Source: Candidatus Nealsonbacteria bacterium
Lineage (GTDB): Bacteria > Patescibacteriota > Minisyncoccia > Minisyncoccales > RBG-13-36-15
Direction of reading: 5' to 3'
DNA: 64,000 nt
Assembly (NCBI GenBank): GCA_011050465.1
Contig: DRFQ01000010.1
Coordinates: 15,514-79,513 of the forward strand
Shown: positions 5,088-61,358 of the stretch, one piece after another
How positions within the stretch are numbered: position 1 is the first letter of the stretch
How the letters are laid out: each line of letters starts with the position of its first letter
Notes under the pieces: generated by a model
Database searches by the model: none
Told to the model about the DNA's origin: nothing
Seen by the model: only the letters and a program-made list of their open reading frames with translations
Program-made: the position numbers and the translations under genes

Positions 5088-7343
5088 TTATTCTAAATGC
5101 ACTTTTTCTCGGAGCTCTTCTACTCTTTTTTGAAGTAGGGGATATTTTTTTAATGCGGGATCTTGTTCTAATATTTCTTTGGCGGCTTGTCTTGTTTTTT
5201 CAACTAACGATATATCTTTTAAAGAAGACATTACTAAGTCTGGAATTCCCCATTGCCTGGTACCAGAGAAATCTCCCGGTCCCCGAATCTCTAAATCCTT
5301 TTCAGCTAATTTAAATCCATCTTCAGAATCCAATAGAGCCTTTAATCTCTGCTGAGTTTTTTTAGCTGGAGAATCAGTGAATAAAAAACAGAAAGACTGA
5401 AGCTTTGATCTTCCTACTCTTCCTCTAAATTGATGAAGCTGAGCCAATCCGAATCTTTCTGTCCCTTCAATCATCATTATGGTGGCATTGGGAACGTCAA
5501 TTCCCACCTCGATTACCGAGGTTGATATCAAGATATCTGTCTTTTTGTCTTTAAAGTCTTTCATTATTTTTTCTTTTTCTTTTGGAGTCATTTTGCCATA
5601 AAGCTGTTCTACCTTCAGATTGGGGAAAATAGTTTTTGAAAGCTTTTCGTATTCTTCTTTTACTGCTTTGACCTCAGCCCAGCTTAACCTCCCGCCACTT
5701 TTTATGTAATTTGTTTGATCTAATTTATTTTCTTGGGAAGCAGCGGGGGGCTCAATTCTTGGGCAGACAACGAAGGCCTGTCTTCCTTTTTTAACTTCTT
5801 TTTCAATAAAATTATAAATTTTCTTTCTTTCTTTGGGTTTAATTACTTTAGTGATTATTTTTTTTCTTCCTTTTGGTAATTCTGTAATTAAAGATAAATC
5901 TAAATCTCCATAAATAGTTAGGGCTAAGGTGCGGGGGATGGGGGTGGCAGTCATTGATAATAAATGAGGAATAATTTTTTCTTGTTTTTTTTGATTTTTA
6001 CAGAGCTTAGCTCTTTGTTCTACTCCAAAACGATGCTGTTCATCTAAGACGACTAAAGCCAGATTTTTAAATTTCACTTTATCTTGGATTAAAGTATGAG
6101 TGCCGATTAGAAGATCTATTTCTCCTTTGGCCGTTTTTTCTAAAATTTTTTGACGCGAAATTTCTATGGTATCATTTTTTAACTTTTTTGAAATAAATTT
6201 ATCTTCTTTACCGGTCAAAAGACCAATATTCAAATTAAAGTTCCTTAAAAAACGGGATACTTCCTGAAAATGCTGTTTGGTCAAAATTTCAGTCGGCGCC
6301 ATAAAACCTACTTGATAACCAGCTTTCATTACGTTAAGAGCTGCCATTGTAGCTACCACCGTTTTTCCAGAGCCCACATCTCCTTCTAAAAGCCTGTTCA
6401 TTGGCCTTGGTTTTTCTAAGTCTTTTAAAATCTGCCAGGCTGATTTTCTTTGGGTATTTGTTAGCTTAAAAGACAAAGAAGCAACAAACTTTTTAATTAG
6501 AGGAAGATTTAAAGAAATTTGATAGGCCTTTTTCTGAGTTAATTTTATTCTTTCTTTAATCACCAAAAGCTCGATTAAAAAAAGCTCCTCAAAAGAGAAG
6601 CGTTGCTTTGCTTTTTCAGCTAAAGCAATTGAATCTGGAAAATGAACCTGCCAGAGAGCAATTTTTAAATCAAGTAGATTATGTTTTTTTCTAATTCTTT
6701 CCGGCAGAGTTTCTGGAATTGTATTTTTTAAACTACCCAGAAGAGGCTTAATAATAAATCTTAACCATCTTGAACTTAGTCCTTCGGTTTCAGGATAAAC
6801 AGGCACAATTCTGCCGGTATGGACTAAGTTTGTAGTTTGTAGTTTGTGGCCTGCCGCCTCTGGCGTAGCCAGAGGCGAGCCTCGCCAAGGGCGGGTAGTT
6901 CGAAAGATTTTTTCGTAGGTTGGATTGGACAAATAAAGACCTTCCTTTCCAATAACTGCTCTTCCGGCCAGACATACCCAATCTCCCGGCTTAATAACCC
7001 TGACTAGATATGGCTGATTGAACCAAACAACTTTTATTGCTGCACCCCGAACCGAGCCTTGTTTTGGTTCTGGGGCTGCGGTTTTGTCTGAAACAACGGC
7101 GTGTGTTAAAGTCATTCTTTTTTTCCAGGTGCTACTGTTGTTGATTTCTAAGATTTTTCCTTGGATACAGCAAGGTTCGTTTAATTTTATTTCCGAAATT
7201 CTAATTATATTCGAAAAATCCTCATAACGATGAGGAAGATGAAAGAGTAGATCCCTAATTGTTTTAATCCCTATTTTTTTCAATCTTTTTCGGTAAGCCA
7301 GGCCAACATTCGGGATTTTTTCAATAGGAGTGGAAAGAATCAT
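5088..7343 (-). CDS. recG: ATP-dependent DNA helicase RecG
   Basis: 751 aa. Wedge-domain N-terminus, GDVGSGKT (Walker A), VLDEQHRFGV (DEQH box), LSMTATPIPRTL, QLHQFRGRVGR. Carries two GC-rich in-frame insertions (see findings). Confidence 0.9.
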   Translation of the reverse strand: MILSTPIEKIPNVGLAYRKRLKKIGIKTIRDLLFHLPHRYEDFSNIIRISEIKLNEPCCIQGKILEINNSSTWKKRMTLTHAVVSDKTAAPEPKQGSVRGAAIKVVWFNQPYLVRVIKPGDWVCLAGRAVIGKEGLYLSNPTYEKIFRTTRPWRGSPLATPEAAGHKLQTTNLVHTGRIVPVYPETEGLSSRWLRFIIKPLLGSLKNTIPETLPERIRKKHNLLDLKIALWQVHFPDSIALAEKAKQRFSFEELFLIELLVIKERIKLTQKKAYQISLNLPLIKKFVASLSFKLTNTQRKSAWQILKDLEKPRPMNRLLEGDVGSGKTVVATMAALNVMKAGYQVGFMAPTEILTKQHFQEVSRFLRNFNLNIGLLTGKEDKFISKKLKNDTIEISRQKILEKTAKGEIDLLIGTHTLIQDKVKFKNLALVVLDEQHRFGVEQRAKLCKNQKKQEKIIPHLLSMTATPIPRTLALTIYGDLDLSLITELPKGRKKIITKVIKPKERKKIYNFIEKEVKKGRQAFVVCPRIEPPAASQENKLDQTNYIKSGGRLSWAEVKAVKEEYEKLSKTIFPNLKVEQLYGKMTPKEKEKIMKDFKDKKTDILISTSVIEVGIDVPNATIMMIEGTERFGLAQLHQFRGRVGRSKLQSFCFLFTDSPAKKTQQRLKALLDSEDGFKLAEKDLEIRGPGDFSGTRQWGIPDLVMSSLKDISLVEKTRQAAKEILEQDPALKKYPLLQKRVEELREKVHLE

Positions 7344-7832: not shown

Positions 7833-7978
7833 CTTTCCTACGGGGGTTAAAAATCGCTACAGCTAAAGATTGTCGAAGGTTCGAACCAGAGCACCGAACA
7901 CCTAAGGCATCATGTGTTTCGGTGCTCGGCCGAGCACTAAAAGTTTTTAGTGCTTTGGTCCTATTCCCTCCGCCTCAT

Positions 7979-17872: not shown

Positions 17873-18206
17873 CATGTTTATTTCGACACCTTTGATTCCC
17901 CCAATAACCTTAATATAATAATTTTACCGGGAACTGTTCCCGAAAAGTTAGTCTTTTATTTCCCTTTTTTAATTTTTAGAGTATAATTTAATAATGTTTA
18001 GTTCGACAAAAGCGAAGAAAATTTTCCGCGTCGTGCCCACCTACCTTCTCGACGCAAATCAGATAGAACTGACACGCGATAATCATTCTCAAGGTGCCAG
18101 TTTTAAGTATTTCAACGGGCAGGAAGGCGGGCGGGTGAATCCGCATAGCTACCCGCGCCTGCCCCGTAGGGAACTAAAGGTTCTCCTTCGGGGTCAATCC
18201 GCTTCT

Positions 18207-18830
18207 ATGAATAAGGGTTTCACTTTAATCGAACTCTTAGTCGTTATTACCATTATTGGCATTTTGGCCGGCATTATTTTGGTTGCAATGGGATCAGTAC
18301 GAGAGAAGGCAAAAGATACCAAAATTGAGAGCAATATGCTTCAGCTCCAGCAGCTAGCTGAAAATCTCTATTTAGACTATGGAAATTATGATAATGTAGA
18401 CCCTACTATCTCGTCTGAAATTGCTGCTATTGAAAATGATATCATCACCCAAGGAGGTTCGCCACTAACTATTAAAACACCTTTACCAGCTGATACATAC
18501 TGTGCTTATACATCTTTAAATAAAACTTTAGACGGACAACAGGTCTATTATTGCACTGATTATTTGTTTAGGAACCAGCAGATTGGGGATCCTTCTATTG
18601 GTTGTTATGATACCTGTTTTGTTTGTCCAGCCTGCCTCGATTCCAATGGTGATGGTTTGATGACGGCCGGTCCTGACCCGATACCAAACGAGCTGTTGAA
18701 CATGTTCATATCGTCTTGTTGGGGGCAGCCTGCTTCTTGTAATCCCAGCCTAGATTTAGATTGTAATGGAATAATCAATATCTTAGATGTGATGTCTTAT
18801 AGCGGCTTAATACCTTATCCTTGTCTATAA
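18207..18830 (+). CDS. Type IV pilin, paralog 3, with Cys-rich dockerin-like (EF-hand type) C-terminal module
   Basis: MNKG then FTLIELLVVITIIGILAGIILVAMGSVREKAKDTKI. C-terminus has CLDSNGDGLMT and DLDCNGIINILDV (DxDxNGxIxxxD). The track ORF extends in-frame up to ATG 17994 through a GC-rich leader. Confidence 0.75.
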   Translation: MNKGFTLIELLVVITIIGILAGIILVAMGSVREKAKDTKIESNMLQLQQLAENLYLDYGNYDNVDPTISSEIAAIENDIITQGGSPLTIKTPLPADTYCAYTSLNKTLDGQQVYYCTDYLFRNQQIGDPSIGCYDTCFVCPACLDSNGDGLMTAGPDPIPNELLNMFISSCWGQPASCNPSLDLDCNGIINILDVMSYSGLIPYPCL

Positions 18831-46079: not shown

Positions 46080-46103
46080 AGTTAAAATGATACTGATAAG
46101 AAT

Positions 46104-46224
46104 CCGGCACTGAAGCGAAGCCCAGAACCAGAGCAGAACTCGGTTTTGGGCTGTCCCGAACTTCGTTCTGGTTCGGGGCTCGGTGCTGGATTGGTCCTGC
46201 ACCGAACGAAGTTTTGGTGCGGGA
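46104..46224. repeat. GC-rich bipartite hairpin element(s), intergenic copy
   Basis: cccagaaccagagcagaactcggttttggg...cccgaacttcgttctggttcgggg...cctgcaccgaacgaagttttggtgcggg. Same family as 50235-50318, 56285-56368 and 58963-59027. Confidence 0.8.
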
Positions 46225-46376: not shown

Positions 46377-46604
46377 CCCCGCACTAAATTTCGCAAACTG
46401 ATTTTGAAGGTAGCCCGCTTCCCCGAACTATTCCTCGCTTCGCTCGTAAAGTACGGGGCATAGCGTCCAAAAGAGAAGGATGAGGCTACCTGCCCCGTAT
46501 AATCCCGAAGGGATTTATATGGGGTTCGCCACACGCGGGCTACAGAATGTTAAAAATAAAATTCTATATTTAATTATTCATTCCGCGGCGAAATTAGTGC
46601 GGGG
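46377..46604. mobile_element. MITE-like 228-bp non-coding element with 17/18-nt terminal inverted repeats and nested hairpins
   Basis: Left end ccccgcactaaatttcgc (46377-46394), right end gcgaaattagtgcgggg (46588-46604). Inner pairs gtagcccgc/gcgggctac, tacggggca/tgccccgta, aatccc-gaa-gggatt. Confidence 0.55.
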
Positions 46605-49495: not shown

Positions 49496-49861
49496 TTATT
49501 TTAAGAAAGATTTTTTAGGCTTAGGAAATAAAATTGAAACAACAAACCCAAGCCCCCAAATAACAAGGGTTGTCCAGAGAAGAGGTATAATTAACGGAAT
49601 GGTCAGTTCAAAAAAAATAAGATCCACTGTCCAGATAATCAGCATATTAATAATTAAACTAAAAAGCCCGAAAGTCAACAGCCTTAGCGGAAGAGTTATA
49701 AAATTCAGAATCGGTTTTAAAAAGAAATTTAAGAGCCCAAGAATTAGTCCGGCTAAAAGGAGGTATTTATTCTCTCCGACAAATTCCACCCTTGGAATAA
49801 ACTGAATGACCAGCCAAAGTCCTAAAATTCCGGAAACAATCTGTAAAATTAACTCTCTCAT
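49496..49861 (-). CDS. Small four-TM membrane protein (phage-holin-4_2 / DUF360-like)
   Basis: 121 aa. GLLNFFLKPILNFITLPLRLLTFGLFSLIIN resembles the family signature (recalled, not searched). Confidence 0.5.
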   Translation of the reverse strand: MRELILQIVSGILGLWLVIQFIPRVEFVGENKYLLLAGLILGLLNFFLKPILNFITLPLRLLTFGLFSLIINMLIIWTVDLIFFELTIPLIIPLLWTTLVIWGLGFVVSILFPKPKKSFLK

Positions 49862-49943: not shown

Positions 49944-51704
49944 TTAGCGACCTGTTTTTCCACCACGAGAGGAAACACCAATGCGTTTCCCCCGATCCCT
50001 CCTCTGGGAATTGCCAAACGCAATTTCTCTTAATTTTCTATGATAAGCAAGAGCAAAACGGTGGGCTTCGTCGCGGAGTTGCAAAATTAAATTAAAGATT
50101 TCTCGAGGAAGACTTTTTAATAAAATCGGCTTCCCCACACCAGCCTTCGTCCCGAGGTCCTCGGCTGAGCTCGGTCGAATGCCCTCAGGCCGAGGGGAAA
50201 TTTTGTTCAGGTCTCGGACTGGTCCGGCCCCGTGCCCCGAACCAGAAACTTTGTTTCGGTTCAGGACTGGTCCAGCACCGAGCTTCGCTCTGGTGCTGGG
50301 CTCGGCTCTGGTGCTGGGTTTCCGATTTTCTACAAATAGCTCGTTTTTTTTCTTCGCAAGAGCAATAACAGGAATTGCTAATTGTTGATTGCTAATCGTT
50401 GATTGAACAGCATTTAATTGGGCCTTGCCACCGTCAATTAGAATTAAATCTGGAAAGCCCCACTCAGAGTGTTTTAATCTTCGTTTAATGATTTCTTTTA
50501 TCATCGCAATATCATTTGGTTTGTCTGTAATTCTAATCTTAAATTTTCGATAACAATTTTTATCGGGTTGACCATTAATAAAAGTTACCATTGAACCGGT
50601 GGCTAGTTTACCCTGAATATTAGAAATATCGTAAGCTTCGATCCGAGATATTTTTTTCTTTATTTTAAGGAGATTTTGAAGAACTTCTTGAATTTTTAGC
50701 CAGTTTTTCTCTAAACTTATCGAGATTAATTTCTTTTCCCTAAAGATTTTAGCGCGTCCTCCCAAATCCCGCCCTCTCTGGAGAGAGAGCGGGACTAGGT
50801 GGGTATGAGCAAAAACTCTTTCTATGGCGTTAATTTGGTCTCTAATTCTGGCTGCTATTTCAAAGTTTTTTAAGGCAGAAGCATTTTTCATTTCTTTTTG
50901 CAATTTTTTTAAAACCAACTGTTTTCCTCCTTTCAAAACAGTGATTAGATTTTTAATATTTTTTTTATACTTTTTTAAATCAGGGTTGGGGCCGGGGCAG
51001 AGATTTAATTGACACCAAAGACATAAAGTTTCGGGGTGCCGTTTTACGGTGTAATAGGGGAAAATTTTTCTGAGGATTCTTAAAGTTATTTTAAGGGCAG
51101 AGCCCTCTACAAAAGGCCCGATGTAAATAGATTTTGGGCTTGTCCGCCCAGTCCCGCCTCTTTTGGAAAGGGGCGGGATTTTGGCGGGTTGGTGGGTTAA
51201 GAAAACTTGGGGGAAATATTCCCCAGTTATTCCCACAAAAAAATAGTTTTTGTCGTCCCGCCACAGAATATTATATTTTGGCTGATATTTTTTGATTAGT
51301 TTGGCTTCTAAAATCAAAGCCTCAATTTCTGAGCCTGTTTTCAAGTAACCAATCTTTCGGATTTTATTTATAAAAAGAGGACTCTTGAATCCTGGCCTAG
51401 AAAAATGATTTTTTACCCTTTTTCTGATATTTGAAGCCTTGCCAATGTATAAGAATCTGTCTTTAGTAGAACCTTGATTCTTTGCTTCGTTCGGAAATAA
51501 GAACCTTGACTTCGTCAAGGACCTTGAATACTTCATATTTAAAAATTCCCTATCTTTTTTTTCGCCTACGCTTGTTGCAAGCGAGCTTCGGCGGATCCGC
51601 CGTAGCTCCGACTTTGTCGGAGCAGAGGCGGAAAAAGCATAAACTCCGGGGCCTTTTGGCAGTTCCGAGATTTTATTTTTATCTAAAAATCTAAATTTTT
51701 TCAT
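49944..51704 (-). CDS. uvrC: Excinuclease ABC subunit C, carrying several GC-rich in-frame insertions and no recognisable C-terminal (HhH)2 domain
   Basis: 586 aa. GPGVYAF...LYIGKASNIRKRVKNHF (GIY-YIG), UVR-like helix, IEAYDISNIQG, LILIDGGKAQL, RDEAHRFALAYHRKLR. Confidence 0.85.
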   Translation of the reverse strand: MKKFRFLDKNKISELPKGPGVYAFSASAPTKSELRRIRRSSLATSVGEKKDREFLNMKYSRSLTKSRFLFPNEAKNQGSTKDRFLYIGKASNIRKRVKNHFSRPGFKSPLFINKIRKIGYLKTGSEIEALILEAKLIKKYQPKYNILWRDDKNYFFVGITGEYFPQVFLTHQPAKIPPLSKRGGTGRTSPKSIYIGPFVEGSALKITLRILRKIFPYYTVKRHPETLCLWCQLNLCPGPNPDLKKYKKNIKNLITVLKGGKQLVLKKLQKEMKNASALKNFEIAARIRDQINAIERVFAHTHLVPLSLQRGRDLGGRAKIFREKKLISISLEKNWLKIQEVLQNLLKIKKKISRIEAYDISNIQGKLATGSMVTFINGQPDKNCYRKFKIRITDKPNDIAMIKEIIKRRLKHSEWGFPDLILIDGGKAQLNAVQSTISNQQLAIPVIALAKKKNELFVENRKPSTRAEPSTRAKLGAGPVLNRNKVSGSGHGAGPVRDLNKISPRPEGIRPSSAEDLGTKAGVGKPILLKSLPREIFNLILQLRDEAHRFALAYHRKLREIAFGNSQRRDRGKRIGVSSRGGKTGR

Positions 51705-51818: not shown

Positions 51819-54800
51819 TTATGGAGGTGATATTGGGAACCCCCAACTTACAAACTGGGGTGTTAAATCCACCCCCGCGTTTCCGCTTAATAAATGAGCA
51901 AAAAGCTCTACTTTTTCAAGATCGGTTGCTGGTGGAGATTCAGTTAAAGTCGCAAAATCCCGAAAAGTTTGCCGAAAAGGTTCCCAACCAATGTCTTCCT
52001 TTAATAAATAGAGAAGCCCCGTATAAGCGTCGCCCGACATATTCTGCCAGTCAGTACGGCTAGAATCTATCCAAGGGAGTGCATAACCTTCTACAAAATA
52101 TTGATACGAAAATTCTCCGATAGGGACATAGCCTACAGGGCCTTGATAAAATGTTGCGGTAGGGTAGGTATTAGAAAGCACATCAGCCACATAAGTTAAC
52201 TTAAAATTTGCCCAGTGTTCAGAGTTTATGGGGCTACCTCCCGCGTAGTGTTGAGATAATGCGTCAAGATCGAAATCATGGCTTAATTCATGAATCGGAC
52301 CGAAGCTTAAATCGTTTTGAGTATTGATTGCTTCAAGGGCATCAGGAACATAATCTCCAAGCCAGAGAATTGGATTTCCTGCGATCATGAGACCTCCGGC
52401 ATAATTAACAATTTCCTGTATTAATATTTTGTCACCATTATAAGGAGTCTGTCCAGTAAGATTATGAAGAGCAAGGTAGGCGTCGTCAAGTTTCTGAAGC
52501 CAACTGTTTGGGTCTGTTAGTAATGAACGGTGCTCAGGCAAGAAGCATATAACCACATGTTGTCCCCCAAAAGGAGGGTCAAGCTTTTCAAATGACATAT
52601 CATCAAAAAAGACAGTTCCCGTGACAAGCGACCAACTATATCCGATCCGAGCAGCAACAGTTACAGTGTCTGATGCTATAGAACAGAAAAACAAGCTTTC
52701 TTCTATCCAGTCTTGAGTCCCCCAGATTCCTGGCGAACGATTAAATGATAAATAAACGGAAAGGTTAGCTCCCGTGCTCCAGCCGCCGGGTGTATCAGAT
52801 AAAACAACATTTTCAGTTTTTATCCACCCCTTAAATAGATAAGAGTTATAAGGCTCTACTGAAACATTCTGTATCCACATGGCATCGTTGGGGACTGATG
52901 AAGTAATTTTAGCCGAACCCACCCCACTTCTTACAGTAGATCCGTCTGAAATCCACTCAAAAGAAGAAGGTCCGTTTCCGCCCCACTGGTTTATTGTCCA
53001 ACCAGTAGGCATGCCTCCTGAGCCACTTTCAAAACCAGGATTTGCTACAAGTGAAAGGGTCGCCTCTGTTACCGTTAAATTATAAGTTACTGTTCTGGTC
53101 AGGGCAGTAACAGTAATTGGAAAGGTGCCAGCAGGAGTGTCAGGAGAGGTCATAATGGTCATTGTTGAAGAACAGGTAGGATTGCAAGAGGTTGGAGAAA
53201 AGGAGATATCCACTGTTAGGTCAACCATTATTGGCTCAGCCGAGGCAGAAAAGCCAACAGATTCAGAAGTGCCCGAAATTAAGGTGATATCAATAGGGAC
53301 GGAAACTGAGTTACCTTGAATTACTGAGGTAGGGGCAACGGAACTGACCGAAAGGTCAAAAAAGAAAGGGTGAATAATGGCCAAAGTGTAAATAGCAGTT
53401 TTAGTTAATGTTCCGCTAGCACCAGTGACGGTGATATCATAAGTTCCCTCAAGAGGGATACCATCAGCAAAGGCGTTAATAGTCATGGTCGAGGAACAGG
53501 GAGATTCACAACTAGTTGGGCTTAAAGAACCCGTAGTTCCTGGAGGAAGGTCGAAAGAGAAATCAACGGTTTGAGCAAAACCACCCATAGAATCAACAGT
53601 GACCGTAGTTGAGATTGAATCACCTTCAGTCACTGTGCCAGAATTTGGACCGACCGAGAGACTAAAGGCAGGAGTAATACAGCTTTCATCTGCTTGGCAT
53701 TGCTGGCCAGAGGAACAGCCACAAGTACTACAATTATTTATTAAGATTCCATTTTGGCAATATAATGGTTGATTAGTTGAACATTGGTTGTAGGAAGTAC
53801 CGTCTGCACATATTAGGGCAGTGCAGACACCTTCACTGCAAGCCTCATTTGATGTGCAATCATCATAAACACTCCAATCGTCCCATTGTAAGGAACCGTC
53901 GCAGTTCGCTGAAATTCCAGAACAGTATCTATCTTGATATTTTATTCCAACATCATCTCCAAGATCGCTTCCCCAAGGACAACCGTATTCTACATTAACA
54001 TTATTTTGACATTGGTAAGTGGAAGGCCTAAAGGTATTTGTCGAAGTATCGCAACAAGACCCAGAAGTACATTGAAGAGTAGCAACGTTTATGGTTACCC
54101 TGTCCTCGGTGGTCAATCCGCCTCTTTCCACAATAACCTTAGCAGTGTAGGTTCCTTCTGATGGGTAATTGCAGACATCCGTATAAGAGCTAGTGAAAAC
54201 ATAATCTATTCTATTATTATAACCAGGCATAACATCTGTTCCCGCATCAGAACGGTCACAATAAAAAATATAATTAGCTGGCCCAGTATCTATTCCGGAA
54301 ACTTGGGCAGTAAGCTCAATATCTAAAGGGGCATTGCCGGACGAAGGATCGACAGATAAAGAAACTGAGAAGGTAGGAGTAACACAGCTTTCATCTGCTT
54401 GGCATTGCTGACCAGCGGGACAGCCGCAAGAGCTACATTTGTCAATTAGGTTACCATTCTCGCAATATATTGGTTTTATTGAGGAGCATTCGCTATAAAT
54501 TGTATTATCATCACATCTTTGTATGACCTCATATTCACACTTTGAATCTTTTGTTAAAGGATTAAGACACTTATCAATGGTTTCAGAGTTCTTATCATCA
54601 CAATCTACGTCTGAACAACATTCATAATTTTTACATTGGCGATTTTCGACATATTTACAATAATCACATATTATTATTTGACAAGTATTACTATCACAGA
54701 CTTCATTTTCTTTGCAATCATTGTGATCTAAGCATTTTATCGGCTCAGGTGGTTCTATCGGTTCTGACATTTGTTTTGCAAGGTAAAAATATAACCCTCC

Positions 54801-54881
54801 GGTTATTAAGCCAGCAACAACTATAACAAAAATTATACCGATTAAAAGTTGTCCTTGATTATGAAATCTAGATTTTTCCAT
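51819..54881 (-). CDS. Large membrane-anchored, Cys-rich multidomain surface protein with Ig/PKD-like repeats, a CBM-like jelly-roll segment and a C-terminal HExxH (zincin-like) domain
   Basis: 1020 aa. N-terminal TM helix (LLIGIIFVIVVAGLITGGLYFYL), two copies of a Cys module (C..C...YC.NG.LI..CS.CGC..GQQCQADESC.TP.F), PKD-like SVSLSVDPSSGNAPLDIELTAQ, GFESGSGGMPTGW segment, HELSH at 52278-52292. Confidence 0.7.
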   Translation of the reverse strand: MEKSRFHNQGQLLIGIIFVIVVAGLITGGLYFYLAKQMSEPIEPPEPIKCLDHNDCKENEVCDSNTCQIIICDYCKYVENRQCKNYECCSDVDCDDKNSETIDKCLNPLTKDSKCEYEVIQRCDDNTIYSECSSIKPIYCENGNLIDKCSSCGCPAGQQCQADESCVTPTFSVSLSVDPSSGNAPLDIELTAQVSGIDTGPANYIFYCDRSDAGTDVMPGYNNRIDYVFTSSYTDVCNYPSEGTYTAKVIVERGGLTTEDRVTINVATLQCTSGSCCDTSTNTFRPSTYQCQNNVNVEYGCPWGSDLGDDVGIKYQDRYCSGISANCDGSLQWDDWSVYDDCTSNEACSEGVCTALICADGTSYNQCSTNQPLYCQNGILINNCSTCGCSSGQQCQADESCITPAFSLSVGPNSGTVTEGDSISTTVTVDSMGGFAQTVDFSFDLPPGTTGSLSPTSCESPCSSTMTINAFADGIPLEGTYDITVTGASGTLTKTAIYTLAIIHPFFFDLSVSSVAPTSVIQGNSVSVPIDITLISGTSESVGFSASAEPIMVDLTVDISFSPTSCNPTCSSTMTIMTSPDTPAGTFPITVTALTRTVTYNLTVTEATLSLVANPGFESGSGGMPTGWTINQWGGNGPSSFEWISDGSTVRSGVGSAKITSSVPNDAMWIQNVSVEPYNSYLFKGWIKTENVVLSDTPGGWSTGANLSVYLSFNRSPGIWGTQDWIEESLFFCSIASDTVTVAARIGYSWSLVTGTVFFDDMSFEKLDPPFGGQHVVICFLPEHRSLLTDPNSWLQKLDDAYLALHNLTGQTPYNGDKILIQEIVNYAGGLMIAGNPILWLGDYVPDALEAINTQNDLSFGPIHELSHDFDLDALSQHYAGGSPINSEHWANFKLTYVADVLSNTYPTATFYQGPVGYVPIGEFSYQYFVEGYALPWIDSSRTDWQNMSGDAYTGLLYLLKEDIGWEPFRQTFRDFATLTESPPATDLEKVELFAHLLSGNAGVDLTPQFVSWGFPISPP

Positions 54882-55731: not shown

Positions 55732-55846
55732 ATTTAGCCATTGCTCAATTATTGTTTAACGTCGGGTGTTCAACATGGGCGGCCCAGCTAAGCTGGGTCG
55801 CCTTATTGATTTTTCTGAAAACTTAGAGTATGATGTAAGACTCAAT

Positions 55847-58840
55847 ATGTCCCAAGATTTTATAAAAATCAGAGGAGCTCGAGTCCATAACCTAAAAAAC
55901 ATTGACGTCGATATTCCTAAAAATAAATTGGTGGTTATCACCGGTATTTCAGGTTCTGGCAAATCGTCTTTAGCATTTGATATCTTATATGCTGAAGGCC
56001 AAAGAAGATATGTTGAATCATTATCTGCTTATGCCAGGCAATTTTTGGGAATAATGCAAAAGCCTGATGTGGAAAAAATAGAAGGGATATCACCTGCCAT
56101 TTCTATTGACCAAAGAAAATCAGCCCATAATCCTAGATCTACCGTTGGCACAATTACCGAAATTTATGATTATCTAAGACTATTGTTTGCTAGGGCCGGT
56201 AAACCCCACTGTCCAAAGTGTAAAAAATTAGTTGCCCGTCAAACCATTGATCAAATAGTTGAACAAATCCTGAAATTGTCTAAACCCAGCACCAGAGCGA
56301 AACCCAGCACCAGAGCCGAGCACGGTGCTGGACCAGCCCGAGACCCGAACAAAGCATCTGGTGCGGGGAAAACCGAAATTACTATTTTAGGCCCAATTAT
56401 TCGCAGCCAGAAAGGCGAGCATCGAGGCTTAATAGAGGAAATTCAAAGAGGAGGATTTATTCGGGTGAGAATTGATGGTATCATTTACCGAACAGAGGAG
56501 GCCTTAGAAAAATCATTAGACAAAAAGAAGAAACATGATATTGAGGTGGTGGTAGATAGATTAATGATTGAGAAAAGTTTGGATAAATCTCGGTTGGTTG
56601 ATTCATTAGAGACAGCCTTGAAATTAGGAAAGGGCATCGTAATAGTAAATCAGAAACTTTTCATTGCGAAGCAATTGCCCATTGTTCGCACACAGCAAGG
56701 AGCGGAACGATTGGTTCATAAATCTAAAAATCTGAAATCTAATGACTTAATTTTCAGCGAGCATTTCGCCTGTGAGGAATGCAGTGTTTCTTTGCCGGAA
56801 TTGGAGCCCCGTCTTTTTTCTTTCAATTCTCCTTATGGAGCCTGTCCGGCCTGCCATGGATTGGGGGAAAAATTAGAAGTTGACCCAAAATTAGTTATCC
56901 CTAATCATAATTTAACAATTGCTGAAGGCGCTATTAGGCCCTGGATGAAGGCTTCTCATAAGATAGGGAGACAAAGTTATTTCTGGTGGAAATTATCTGA
57001 TTTGGCAGAAAGGCTTAAATTTTCTTTAACAGATTCCGTTAAAAATTTACCTCAAGAAATCATTCAGATTATTCTATATGGCGATGAGGAGTTTGAGGGA
57101 GTGATTCCTTCGTTGGAACGAAGATATCGAGAAACTGAATCAGATTACACTCGGGAAGAGATTAAGCAATACATGATAGAAAAGAAATGTGAGCAGTGCC
57201 AGGGAAAAAGGTTGAAGCCGGAAGTTTTGGCAGTAACAGTCGCTGAAAAATCAATTAATCAAATAGTTGAGACAAGCATCGAGAGATTAAAAGTGTTTCT
57301 CAGCGGGTTGTTAAGCTCTAAGTCTCGTGCCTCAAAGCCTGACGAGATAAAAATCATCCAACCAATTATTAAGGAAATTATAAATAGATTACAATTTCTG
57401 ATTGATGTTGGGCTTGGTTATTTGACCCTGAACCGTAAAGCTGGCACTTTAGCTGGAGGCGAGGAACAGAGAATAAGGCTAGCCACCCAAATTGGATCAA
57501 AGCTTACCGGGGTTTTGTATATTTTAGATGAACCATCGGTAGGCCTTCATTCCCGAGACCAGGACAGACTAATTAAAATATTGAAGAAATTAAGAGATAC
57601 GGGCAATACCATTGTAGTTGTTGAACATGATCCCCGGACAATAAGGGCAGCTGACTGGATTATTGATGTTGGTCCTGGGGCCGGGAAACACGGGGGAAGA
57701 ATTATCTTTAAAGGCACACCAAAAAAGCTGCTTGAAGCCCATACTTTGACGGGGGATTATATGTCCGGGAGGAAGAAAGTGAAAATAAGTCATGGTAGTC
57801 AAAAAAGCCATAAGAGTTTTACAGCTGCCACAGCTCCTATGGCTCAATATCTCATAATCAAAGGCGCGCAAGAGCATAACCTTAAGAATATTGATGTGAA
57901 GATTCCTCTTGGTAAATTTATTTGTATTACCGGAGTTTCAGGGTCTGGCAAGAGTTCTTTGATGAATGATGTTTTGGCCCGGGCTTTATTGAAAAAGTTT
58001 TATAGAGCCAAAGAAGAACCAGGCAAACACAAAGAAATCTCTGGAATTGAAAATTTAAATAAAGTAGTTTTAATTGACCAATCACCAATTGGCCGTACTC
58101 CCAGGTCAAATCCCGCAACTTATACGGGATCTTTCTTTTTCATTAGAGAGCTTTTTTCACAAAGTCGGGAGGCCAGGATTAAAGGATACTTACCCGGCCG
58201 ATTTAGTTTTAACGTTAAAGGAGGAAGATGTGAAAATTGCGAGGGACAGGGTCAAATTAAGATTGAAATGTATTTTTTACCGGATGTATATATTCAATGT
58301 CAAGAATGTCAGGGGAAAAGATTCAATAAAGAAACCCTAACCATTGAATATAGGGGAAAGAATATTGCCGATGTCTTAAAAATGACAGTAGAAGGAGCTT
58401 TAGATTTTTTTAAAAATATTCCCGGACTTTATCTAAAACTCAAAACTTTGAATGATGTTGGTTTAAGCTATCTTCAACTAGGACAACCTGCCCCTTCTTT
58501 GTCGGGAGGAGAAGCTCAGAGAATTAAATTAGCTGCCGAACTCTCAAAAAAGGGGACCGGCAGAACTTTATATATTTTGGACGAACCAACAACTGGCCTT
58601 CATCCAGACGATATTAAAAAATTACTTTTCGTCTTGAAAGAGTTAGTTAATAAAAACAATACTGTTCTTTGTATTGAGCATAATTTAGATGTAATAAAAA
58701 ATGCTGACTGGATTTTAGATTTAGGGCCAGAGGGAGGTGAACAAGGAGGATATATCGTGGCCGAAGGAGACCCAGCTAAAATTACAAATAATAGAAAAAG
58801 CCACACCGGAAGATATTTAAAGGCCGTACTTAATGCTTAA
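55847..58840 (+). CDS. uvrA: Excinuclease ABC subunit A
   Basis: Start re-set to ATG 55847 ([24 protein letters not shown]...). Two ABC ATPase modules ([20 protein letters not shown]), zinc modules (CPKCKK, CEEC...[12 protein letters not shown]...CQEC). Confidence 0.95.
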
Positions 58841-58868
58841 CCCTTCACCTTTCGCTAAAGGTGAAGGG
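58841..58868. repeat. 28-nt palindrome, copy 2 (cccttcaccttt-cgc-taaaggtgaaggg), directly after the uvrA stop
   Basis: Same arms as 28358-28385. Confidence 0.85.
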
Positions 58869-58885
58869 GCTGATCCCGTAGAGAA

Positions 58886-59027
58886 GTCCCGCACTGAAAG
58901 AACTTTAGTGCGGGACTGCGCCTCCTTCGTCGCTTGTTATTCGAAACCTGCCCCGTAGTGAGCCCCGCACCAGAACGAAGTTCGGTGCGGGACTAGTCCA
59001 GAACCGAGCTCTGCTCTGGTTCTGGGC
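58886..59027. repeat. Cluster of GC-rich hairpin elements
   Basis: gtcccgcac-tgaaagaacttta-gtgcgggac (58886-58916), cctgccccgtag core (58947-58958), bipartite element ccccgcaccagaacgaagttcggtgcgggactagtccagaaccgagctctgctctggttctggg (58963-59027). Confidence 0.8.
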
Positions 59028-61185: not shown

Positions 61186-61202
61186 GTTTCCTGATTATTT
61201 TA

Positions 61203-61232
61203 CCCCGCCCCCGCTTAGCGGGATGGGCGGGG
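61203..61232 (+). terminator. GC-rich hairpin after groEL
   Basis: ccccgccc-ccgcttagcgggat-gggcgggg (nested ccgc/gcgg). Confidence 0.55.
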
Positions 61233-61291
61233 CTGCGTCCCCCACGCCAACCTTTGGTAGTGGGGCTTTTGTTTTGGGGCTTATTGGCCTG

Positions 61292-61322
61292 CCCAGCCGC
61301 ACAATCAAGTTGTGCGGCTGGG
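61292..61322. repeat. Perfect 13-bp-stem hairpin cccagccgcacaa-tcaag-ttgtgcggctggg
   Basis: Read directly. Shares the CCCAGC...GCTGGG arm type with the uvrA/uvrC element family. Confidence 0.7.
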
Positions 61323-61358
61323 TTTGTATTTGGAATATTTTGAGGTATAATATAATCA

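Follow-up and report, generated by a model that had tools for sequence, protein, structure and literature searches.

A 66-nt double-hairpin repeat in uvrA and uvrC of a Nealsonbacteria genome is probably mobile DNA of Patescibacteria, tolerated as a translated loop

Why should two genes of the same repair machine carry the same foreign stretch of DNA? The question is raised by a 64,000-nt stretch of a Candidatus Nealsonbacteria genome (contig DRFQ01000010.1, assembly GCA_011050465.1; hereafter the window), in which uvrA and uvrC share 84 nt, at 56285-56368 on the plus strand and 50235-50318 on the minus strand, respectively. The original prediction held that this is a foreign, bipartite hairpin repeat inserted in sense orientation and in the same frame in both genes, and left it between coincidence, a peptide that is tolerated and one that is used. 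The ungapped match was reproduced with 69 of 84 identical columns, the same figure as in the earlier manual count, and a BLAST search within the window gave E = 6e-11 for its 52-nt core, so that chance similarity between the two stretches is excluded. Both are about 60% G+C in a window of 37.6% G+C, and their checked translations confirmed that they are in sense orientation and share a reading frame; the peptide of the uvrC stretch is KPSTRAEPSTRAKLGAGPVLNRNKVSGSG. The core of the prediction is thus supported, and we assign a probability of about 0.78 to the reading that the two stretches are copies of a non-autonomous, GC-rich mobile repeat of Patescibacteria (candidate phyla radiation, CPR), translated as a tolerated loop.

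The uvrA gene (55847-58840, plus strand) starts with the ATG at 55847 and encodes 997 amino acids (NCBIfam NF001503, 1377 bits; UvrA entries of the PDB, E = 0), with best homologs about 75% identical from Nealsonbacteria and Patescibacteria. The uvrC gene (49944-51704, minus strand) encodes 586 amino acids (TIGR00194, 290 bits). The exact 997-residue UvrA is recorded in GCA_011049515.1, and the exact 586-residue UvrC is recorded as a protein of a Candidatus Nealsonbacteria metagenome-assembled genome (MAG; P0123), which excludes a local assembly artefact. Alignment to orthologs and structures bore out that the stretches are insertions without counterpart in the relatives' UvrA and UvrC. Nothing stands at the UvrA insert position in 115 of the 120 closest UvrA homologs, and the element is likewise missing from the window's uvrC site in 115 of 120 UvrC homologs. 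Alignment to syntenic relatives also agreed with the claim that the uvrC insert reaches 50133: it spans 50133-50318, or 62 residues, all of which are missing from the UvrC of loci L002 and L003. The UvrA insert falls between residues 162 and 165 of Geobacillus stearothermophilus UvrA (2r6f), where 30 residues of the query face 2. The part of UvrA that aligns with the isolated UvrB-interaction domain (3fpn) starts here, which would put the loop at the N-terminal edge of the UvrB-binding domain. The UvrC insert falls between residues 124 and 132 of the C-terminal endonuclease fragment of Thermotoga maritima (2nrr), where the loop would separate the final strand of the RNase H-like endonuclease domain from its final helix. 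In AlphaFold2 (AF2) models made from homolog alignments, the per-residue confidence score (pLDDT) is below 50 at UvrA residues 146-174 and UvrC residues 466-520, and the domains flanking the inserts are folded with confidence. Low-confidence coil comprises, in all, residues 146-174 and 273-297 of UvrA and residues 41-79, 180-186, 302-322, 466-520 and 574-586 of UvrC.

The limits of the repeated unit were set by shorter, cleaner copies at the same sites, those of L002 and L003 in uvrA and of L005 in uvrC. The uvrA gene of L002 reads GTAAAA-(66 nt)-AATTCA, against the empty GTAAAAAATTCA of L005; conversely, the uvrC gene of L005 reads AAGAAA-(66 nt)-AAACCG, against the empty AAGAAAAAACCA of L002, and L003 is empty there as well. 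Filled and empty sites differ by exactly 66 nt in both comparisons, and neither shows a target-site duplication. The UvrA proteins of these two genomes, with opposite states at uvrA and uvrC, are 98.4% identical over core columns, and gain or loss has been recent between such near-identical genomes. The 84 nt proposed as one element therefore hold as a match but not as the basic unit: they consist of an 18-nt solo 5' arm with its loop, followed by the 66-nt unit.

The unit, CCCAGCACCAGAGCGAAGCTCGGTGCTGGACCAGTCCCGCACCGAAACGAAGTTTCTGGTGCGGGG, has 66 nt (22 codons) and encodes PSTRAKLGAGPVPHRNEVSGAG. Its layout is CCCAGCACCAGAGCGAAGCTCGGTGCTGG-ACCAGT-CCCGCACCGAAACGAAGTTTCTGGTGCGGGG, in which the joining centre is ACCAGT or ACTAGT, and it is made of two imperfect hairpins of about 30 nt, each with one bulged base (A10 and T57), the second being essentially the first in reverse orientation. 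Among 73 distinct copies, 8 pairs and 38 cells of this two-hairpin structure have changes on both sides, a result reached by none of 500 shuffles. A single long REPIN-like hairpin, which is equally pairable but shows no covariation, was rejected in favour of the two hairpins. The mean column identity over the 73 distinct 66-nt sequences is 94%, whereas the host UvrA proteins are only about 77-85% identical. Entropy by codon position 1/2/3 is 0.34/0.19/0.20 and is concentrated in the loops, the centre and the covarying stem pairs. With most variation at first codon positions and in step with the pairing of the stems, conservation acts on the DNA structure and not on the peptide. All six frames of the canonical unit are open; the variant with the ACTAGT centre closes two of them.

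Four places in the window hold copies. In uvrA, the sequence of the 18-nt solo arm and loop (CCCAGCACCAGAGCGAAA, encoding PSTRAK; 56285-56302, plus strand) precedes the full double-hairpin unit (56303-56368, plus strand), which is 81.8% identical to the canonical unit by BLAST and scores 59.8 bits with a covariance model. Together the two pieces make up UvrA residues 147-174, and the same 18+66 layout is present in L041 and L068. According to the covariance model, hairpin 2 of the uvrA unit contains many non-standard pairs and has lost its pairing. In uvrC, on the minus strand, the insert begins with the 18-nt 5' arm and loop of an outer, older unit, identified by its sequence (CCCAGCACCAGAGCCGAG, 50301-50318). 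It continues with an intact 66-nt unit nested in the outer one (50235-50300), which encodes PSTRAKLGAGPVLNRNKVSGSG, is 93.9% identical to the canonical unit and scores 95.1 bits (E = 1.4e-20). The decayed remainder of the outer unit follows (50133-50234). About 38 nt of it, approximately 74% identical by eye to unit positions 19-56, and its last 10 nt can be recognised directly in the sequence, and it is split by a GC-rich hairpin segment of about 54 nt that belongs to another sequence family. The uvrA copy is thus old and decaying, and the inner uvrC copy is intact. The two intergenic relatives that had been predicted were confirmed by the covariance model. One is a 64-nt unit with a palindromic ACTAGT centre downstream of uvrA (58963-59026; about 80 bits, being 79.8 bits on the minus and 75.7 bits on the plus strand). 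The other is a nested pair (46103-46224, plus strand) in which an inner unit of 58 nt (46121-46178; 41 bits) stands directly after the GAAG loop of the first hairpin of the outer unit (46103-46120 and 46179-46224; 26.9 bits for the outer remainder); its fold energy is -76.6 kcal/mol.

To see how far the unit extends beyond the window, DNA was scanned with the pattern TCGGTNCNGGACNAGTCCNGNACCGA. Contigs representing one genome per species gave 34 stretches, 30 of which lie in 23 MAGs of Patescibacteria (Nealsonbacteria, Parcubacteria, Paceibacteria, Jorgensenbacteria and some labelled Saccharibacteria); the remaining four were discarded as partial chance matches in high-GC Streptomyces, Embleya and Massilia. 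A scan of JGI metagenomes gave at least 119 stretches. No copy was present in IMG/VR viral contigs, PLSDB plasmids or GenBank phages. The census reported below comprises the 113 copies with distinct flanks among the matches listed in both scans, and 110 of these are exactly 66 nt long. Solo units are present in L033, L070, L031, L042 and other loci. The census was done at the DNA level, as cluster representatives give no usable peptide count: a peptide profile run against 1.84 billion of them returned 16 matches, mostly short fragments, and representatives rarely carry the insert. The 44-residue double peptide, compared with a set of 5.8 billion proteins through a word index ill-suited to so short a query, gave 9 candidates and 2 matches.

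We then asked where the unit inserts. The three bases before the first hairpin are A in 88% of the 113 copies (-3), A in 90% (-2), and A in 65% or G in 27% (-1); on the other side of the unit the sequence is A/T-rich and hardly ever has G at +2 or +3. The target, AAA or AAG (AAR), is thus asymmetric and found at the first-hairpin end only. The loops of the family's own hairpins, GAAG or AAAG, hold the target motif and are hit as well: nested insertions directly after the loop were seen in the window (46103-46224), L075, L134 and L015/L155, and L116/L123 have one in the second hairpin. The unit inserts as an exact 66-nt block next to AAA or AAG in A/T-rich DNA, without target duplication, and its insertion into loops of its own family yields the nested forms. 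The 18+66 forms may have arisen, we infer, when a nested pair was excised between the left end of the outer unit and the right end of the inner one, and was then re-inserted.

These data also bear on whether the unit is a classical miniature inverted-repeat transposable element (MITE), that is, a deletion derivative of a DDE-type insertion sequence (IS) moved as double-stranded DNA through its terminal inverted repeats. The ends of the unit are indeed mutual inverted repeats, CCCAGCACCAGA... and ...TCTGGTGCGGGG, and it is short, non-coding by itself and multi-copy. A MITE is nonetheless a poor candidate, because target-site duplication is absent from both clean filled/empty comparisons, AAR marks one end only, covariation backs each internal hairpin and not end-to-end pairing, and hairpin loops serve as insertion sites.

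Copies flanked by short repeats of the TTTCCAA/TTTCAAA type were noted several times in L068, L075, L114, L025 and L021. In L068, 14 nt (TTCCAAATTTCAAA) stand on both sides of the 18+66 copy, which could reflect repeat-rich host DNA, a composite element of greater length or an instance of rare duplication.

The occupied sites recur in other lineages, a point beyond the original prediction. An identical uvrA position is filled in three lineages whose nearest relatives are empty and whose flanks differ, so that the site is either a hot spot or one of many precise losses. The UvrC site, K|KPILL, is filled in five proteins among the 120 closest (the window, P0172, P0221, the composite P0185 and the decayed P0132), and P0169 and P0219 carry the unit at two further UvrC sites. 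L008, taken for a third filled uvrC site, proved to have another protein as host. An ancient insertion, inherited vertically and no longer mobile, made patchy by repeated loss and kept similar by gene conversion, would explain the decay of the uvrA copy and of the outer copy in uvrC, and the decayed remnants that stand at the same sites in P0100 and P0104 (UvrA) and P0132 (UvrC). It is hard to reconcile with the opposite states of two genes in genomes with 98.4% identical UvrA, with the empty nearest relatives and differing flanks of the three filled UvrA lineages, with nested copies, which amount to repeated insertion, or with copies that are about 94% identical between different phylum-level CPR groups. 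We regard it as very unlikely.

Does the common frame of the two window copies mean anything for this pair of genes? The census in other genomes, which the original prediction had called for, revealed a very strong bias to sense frame 0. It applies to 76 of the 91 copies in open reading frames (ORFs) of at least 150 codons, the other 15 being spread over the five remaining frames, and, where the ORF has 100 codons or more, to 48 of the 66 independent sites left once orthologous sites had been collapsed by the similarity of the flanking proteins. If insertion did no more than follow AAR, the phase of this motif in long ORFs (0.9 Mb) would give a share of 0.20, and the binomial p is about 4e-20 on the collapsed sites. 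As all six canonical frames are open, avoidance of stop codons cannot explain the bias; and since the bias is family-wide, the common frame of the uvrA and uvrC copies is not special to them. In 63 of the 76 sense frame 0 copies, the preceding codon is AAA or AAG. The bias is not absolute: L010/L147 are antisense and L136/L101 are at +1, in ORFs of 413-644 codons.

The frame data speak to the fate of the insert in the cell. Ribosomes might bypass it, as they do in Magnusiomyces mitochondrial genes and T4 gene 60, or it might be removed from the RNA, so that the mature protein would lack it. Such a process would suit a GC-rich hairpin within AT-rich coding sequence, and AAA, often on the left and sometimes on the right (uvrA, L003 and L005), resembles matched take-off and landing codons. 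Bypass or removal would free the frame, yet 73-84% of copies are in a single frame; only 8 of 76 copies have AAA as the codon on the right, and the lengths are exact multiples of three. An Rfam search of the window returned tRNAs only, with no intron or other RNA family at the inserts, and 66 nt is far below the size of an intron or intein. Loss of the insert from the product is very unlikely. Frame bias, lengths divisible by three and the structural setting lead us to infer instead that a unit in frame 0 is probably read through as a flexible loop of 22 residues, rich in Pro, Ser, Gly and Arg, within permissive surface loops.

The weakest step in this account of a tolerated mobile repeat is how the unit moves. 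It may be mobilised in trans by a HUH/Y1-type enzyme (IS200/IS605 TnpA or a RAYT-like protein) that acts on single-stranded DNA and recognises both hairpins, a suggestion we make tentatively and at somewhat less than even odds. Several points count against the account. A tblastn search with two Y1 transposase sequences (IS200 and IS608 TnpA) as queries, which covered the window and some 1.2 Mb of loci, or roughly 1% of each genome, gave no transposase with E < 1 (best 2.3). The hairpins reach the ends of the unit and leave no room for IS608-type guide sequences, and a target of 3 nt is shorter than the 4-5 nt typical of IS200/IS605. The presence/absence data fit independent gains and precise losses alike. 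Finally, non-coding DNA holds 14.5% of AAR sites and frame 0 of coding sequence about 17%, whereas about 8% of the 113 copies lie outside ORFs of at least 100 codons and about 73% lie in frame 0 of coding sequence; this ratio means that selection against other frames is insufficient alone. The scarcity of non-coding copies could possibly reflect extra target specificity, faster deletion in streamlined genomes or a benefit within genes. In the account that we favour, the bias would come mainly from selection on surviving insertions, and strong deletion pressure may remove non-coding copies faster.

The hosts of the peptide are unrelated proteins. The 48 frame 0 host proteins match 108 Pfam families and include tRNA synthetases (PheT and AlaS), PNPase, LepA, a FakA/DegV-PlsY fusion, H+-PPase, a P-type ATPase, GlnA (glutamine synthetase), a Mur ligase, a PilB-like ATPase, a MiaB-like enzyme and glycosyltransferases, as well as LigA, PolX, UvrA and UvrB. 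Across lineages, the unit occupies two sites in UvrA, three in UvrC and three in UvrB, a protein that the original prediction had not connected with it. The UvrB sites are near residue 282 (L046/L082/L083/L077/L127), at residue 330 just before DESH (L140) and at residue 628 (L118). LigA (L025) and PolX (L156) carry copies too, and DNA-repair proteins as a group recur strikingly often as hosts on metagenome contigs that are unrelated to one another. In the unbiased scans, excision-repair genes account for roughly 5 of 47 sites, compared with about 1% of the proteome (post-hoc Poisson about 1e-4, calculated by hand). The simplest explanation for this apparent over-representation would be relaxed selection on nucleotide excision repair (NER) in dark subsurface habitats.

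One could argue from these hosts that NER proteins have recruited the peptide as a functional module, for instance as an interaction or regulatory loop common to UvrA and UvrC, and that protein selection maintains it: it recurs in UvrA, UvrB, UvrC, LigA and PolX across lineages, and the frame bias is above the expectation of a simple model. We consider this very doubtful. The element is patchily distributed (L002 carries it only in uvrA, L005 only in uvrC), 115 of 120 homologs of each protein are without it at these sites, and the same peptide occurs in tRNA synthetases, PNPase, H+-PPase, glutamine synthetase, glycosyltransferases and others. Its variation peaks at first codon positions and tracks stem pairing, the uvrA copy is degenerate, and the segments are low-confidence coil in the AF2 models. 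Of the possibilities originally left side by side, use is thus disfavoured by variation that follows DNA pairing, patchiness, unrelated hosts and disordered loops, and tolerance is favoured; the peptide looks tolerated, not used.

A different possibility is that establishment is tied to coding sequence, either because the unit is steered to lysine codons, in frame and within exposed loops, or because it is positively maintained, with a preference for DNA repair (UvrA, UvrB, UvrC, LigA and PolX). If true, this would link non-coding copies below the level of selection-only models, the uvrA position filled in three lineages and the roughly tenfold over-representation of NER genes, and the preference for repair would exist perhaps because altered excision repair favours a hairpin-forming, single-strand element. 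We judge it unlikely.

With which known elements can a tolerated mobile repeat of this kind be compared? Palindromes in coding sequence have been described in the mitochondria of Nematomorpha (PMC6649704). Rickettsia palindromic elements (RPEs; Ogata et al. 2000) are, according to the MITE review PMC10969869, about 100-150 bp long, of about ten families and confined to Rickettsia. Judged by that description, RPEs and the 66-nt unit are alike in being palindromic, in occurring in frame in many unrelated housekeeping genes at positions compatible with the fold, where they add a conserved peptide, and in inhabiting small, AT-rich genomes of host-dependent bacteria. The same description sets them apart from the present unit, with its 66 nt, its Patescibacteria hosts, its AAR target without target duplication, its insertion into its own loops and its about 94% identity across distant genomes.

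REP (repetitive extragenic palindromic) sequences and REPINs with their RAYT (REP-associated tyrosine transposase) partners, the subject of work by Bertels and Rainey in 2011 and Nunvar in 2010, are reportedly imperfect palindromes of about 30 nt that occur as singlets and inverted doublets, the doublet being abundant. The resemblance lies in imperfect palindromes of about 20-40 nt as singlets and inverted doublets, without DDE-type terminal repeats or target duplication. REPs, however, are extragenic by definition, whereas about three quarters of the copies of the 66-nt unit are inside coding sequence; the unit also lacks the GTAG head of REPs, and its covariation favours two hairpins over the single long hairpin of REPINs. 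No RAYT gene was found in the window and 1.2 Mb of loci by the tblastn search with the two TnpA queries.

Miniature derivatives of IS200/IS605 (PATEs, palindrome-associated transposable elements; Ton-Hoang, Dyda, Chandler and colleagues) have hairpins at their ends and insert in fixed orientation 3' of a short sequence. The 66-nt unit shares with IS200/IS605 the hairpin at each end, fixed polarity, lack of target duplication, precise gain and loss, and a preference for single strands, read here from hairpin-loop insertion. It differs in having an AAR target only and no evident guide sequences, and no TnpA/TnpB partner with the same ends was seen in the loci examined (about 1.2 Mb and the window). 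Fungal mitochondria contain mobile GC clusters, double-hairpin elements and 'byp' inserts, the last of which are bypassed by the ribosome and independent of frame. These and the coding palindromes of Nematomorpha are likewise GC-rich hairpin repeats that invade AT-rich genomes, protein-coding genes included, but they are organellar, and the frame bias and multiples of three of the 66-nt unit argue for read-through. In sum, the unit matches RPEs in behaviour and REPIN doublets and IS200/IS605 miniature elements in anatomy, and it fails each family on a defining feature: the host and size of RPEs, the extragenic location of REPs and the target duplication of classical MITEs. No account of such an element in CPR/Patescibacteria, or of its peptide, turned up in full-text literature searches.

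In-frame palindromic selfish DNA in proteins has largely been seen as a peculiarity of Rickettsia, and its behaviour is matched here in the CPR, a vast and mostly uncultured part of bacterial diversity. The element is smaller and better defined than RPEs, with an exact unit, an AAR target, no target duplication, covarying hairpins and natural filled/empty pairs, and this definition makes its mechanism testable with oligonucleotides once a candidate enzyme exists. Conserved marker proteins in CPR MAGs become longer and more varied through its inserts, with consequences for annotation, alignment and phylogeny, and the inserts recurrently supply new surface loops. How a DNA element ends up almost only in one frame is a question raised by the strength of the bias and the scarcity of non-coding copies.

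The host proteins hold further inserts. The UvrA loop of 56285-56368 carries unrelated inserts in P0006, P0021, P0026, P0031, P0061, P0014/15 and P0027/41 (e.g. EYSHGRIRISRDRAERGRANAIRMPE and LGEENKSSSSPFAAAR), which makes this loop a hot spot that is permissive in general and open to several families of inserts. A second UvrA insert (56669-56719, plus strand; residues about 275-291) lies on a small GC-rich island; its alignment block shows differing short inserts rich in R, S and P in 25 of 121 sequences (the window and 24 of 120 homologs), and L087 has a canonical 66-nt unit in the same region of UvrA. The UvrC of the clade is short, normally about 410-460 residues and ranging over about 400-495 with one of 543 among homologs P0124-P0242, and that of the syntenic relatives has 429-464 residues; the window's 586-residue protein is about 150 residues longer because of five separate inserts. 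Four of them, other than the one discussed above, are lineage-specific and missing from syntenic relatives (49947-50015, 50751-50801, 51129-51188 and 51462-51623, minus strand). They comprise about 54 residues inside the GIY-YIG domain, PAKIPPLSKRGGTGRTSPKS, LVPLSLQRGRDLGGRA and the C-terminal tail GNSQRRDRGKRIGVSSRGGKTGR; each coincides with a GC-rich, strongly folding hairpin of another family (e.g. CCCGCC...GGCGGG), and all are low-confidence coil in the AF2 model.

Pfam identifies GIY-YIG, UVR and RNase H-like domains in the UvrC homologs P0124-P0242 and in the window's protein, and a helix-hairpin-helix (HhH) domain is in none of the precomputed Pfam lists for the UvrC of the clade. The idea that uvrC is broken, with its HhH domain in ORF 49496-49861, was rejected, because this ORF is a syntenic holin-like gene and a short UvrC is normal in the clade. 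A replication origin between uvrC and uvrA, considered as a reason for the sense orientation of both copies, found no support, as GC skew at 2-kb resolution tracks the gene strand. The ORF of 1020 residues between the two genes (51819-54881, minus strand) has no NCBIfam match, and relatives have a smaller gene or none in its place.

Many other GC-rich hairpins, of differing sequence, are intergenic in the window (58860-58960, 61193-61323, 46408-46551, 7038-7101, 7880-7930 and 55756-55809), and some adjoin tRNA genes and gene ends. A weak covariance match at 18130-18193 (plus strand; 27.5 bits, E about 1e-4), within ORF 17994-18830, has the double-hairpin shape and no evident sequence relation to the unit. 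A hairpin family of the form CCCCGTAGC...GCTACGGGG stands beside 58963, occurs solo in L092, L119 and L143, and is the insertion target of the 66-nt unit in L015/L155.

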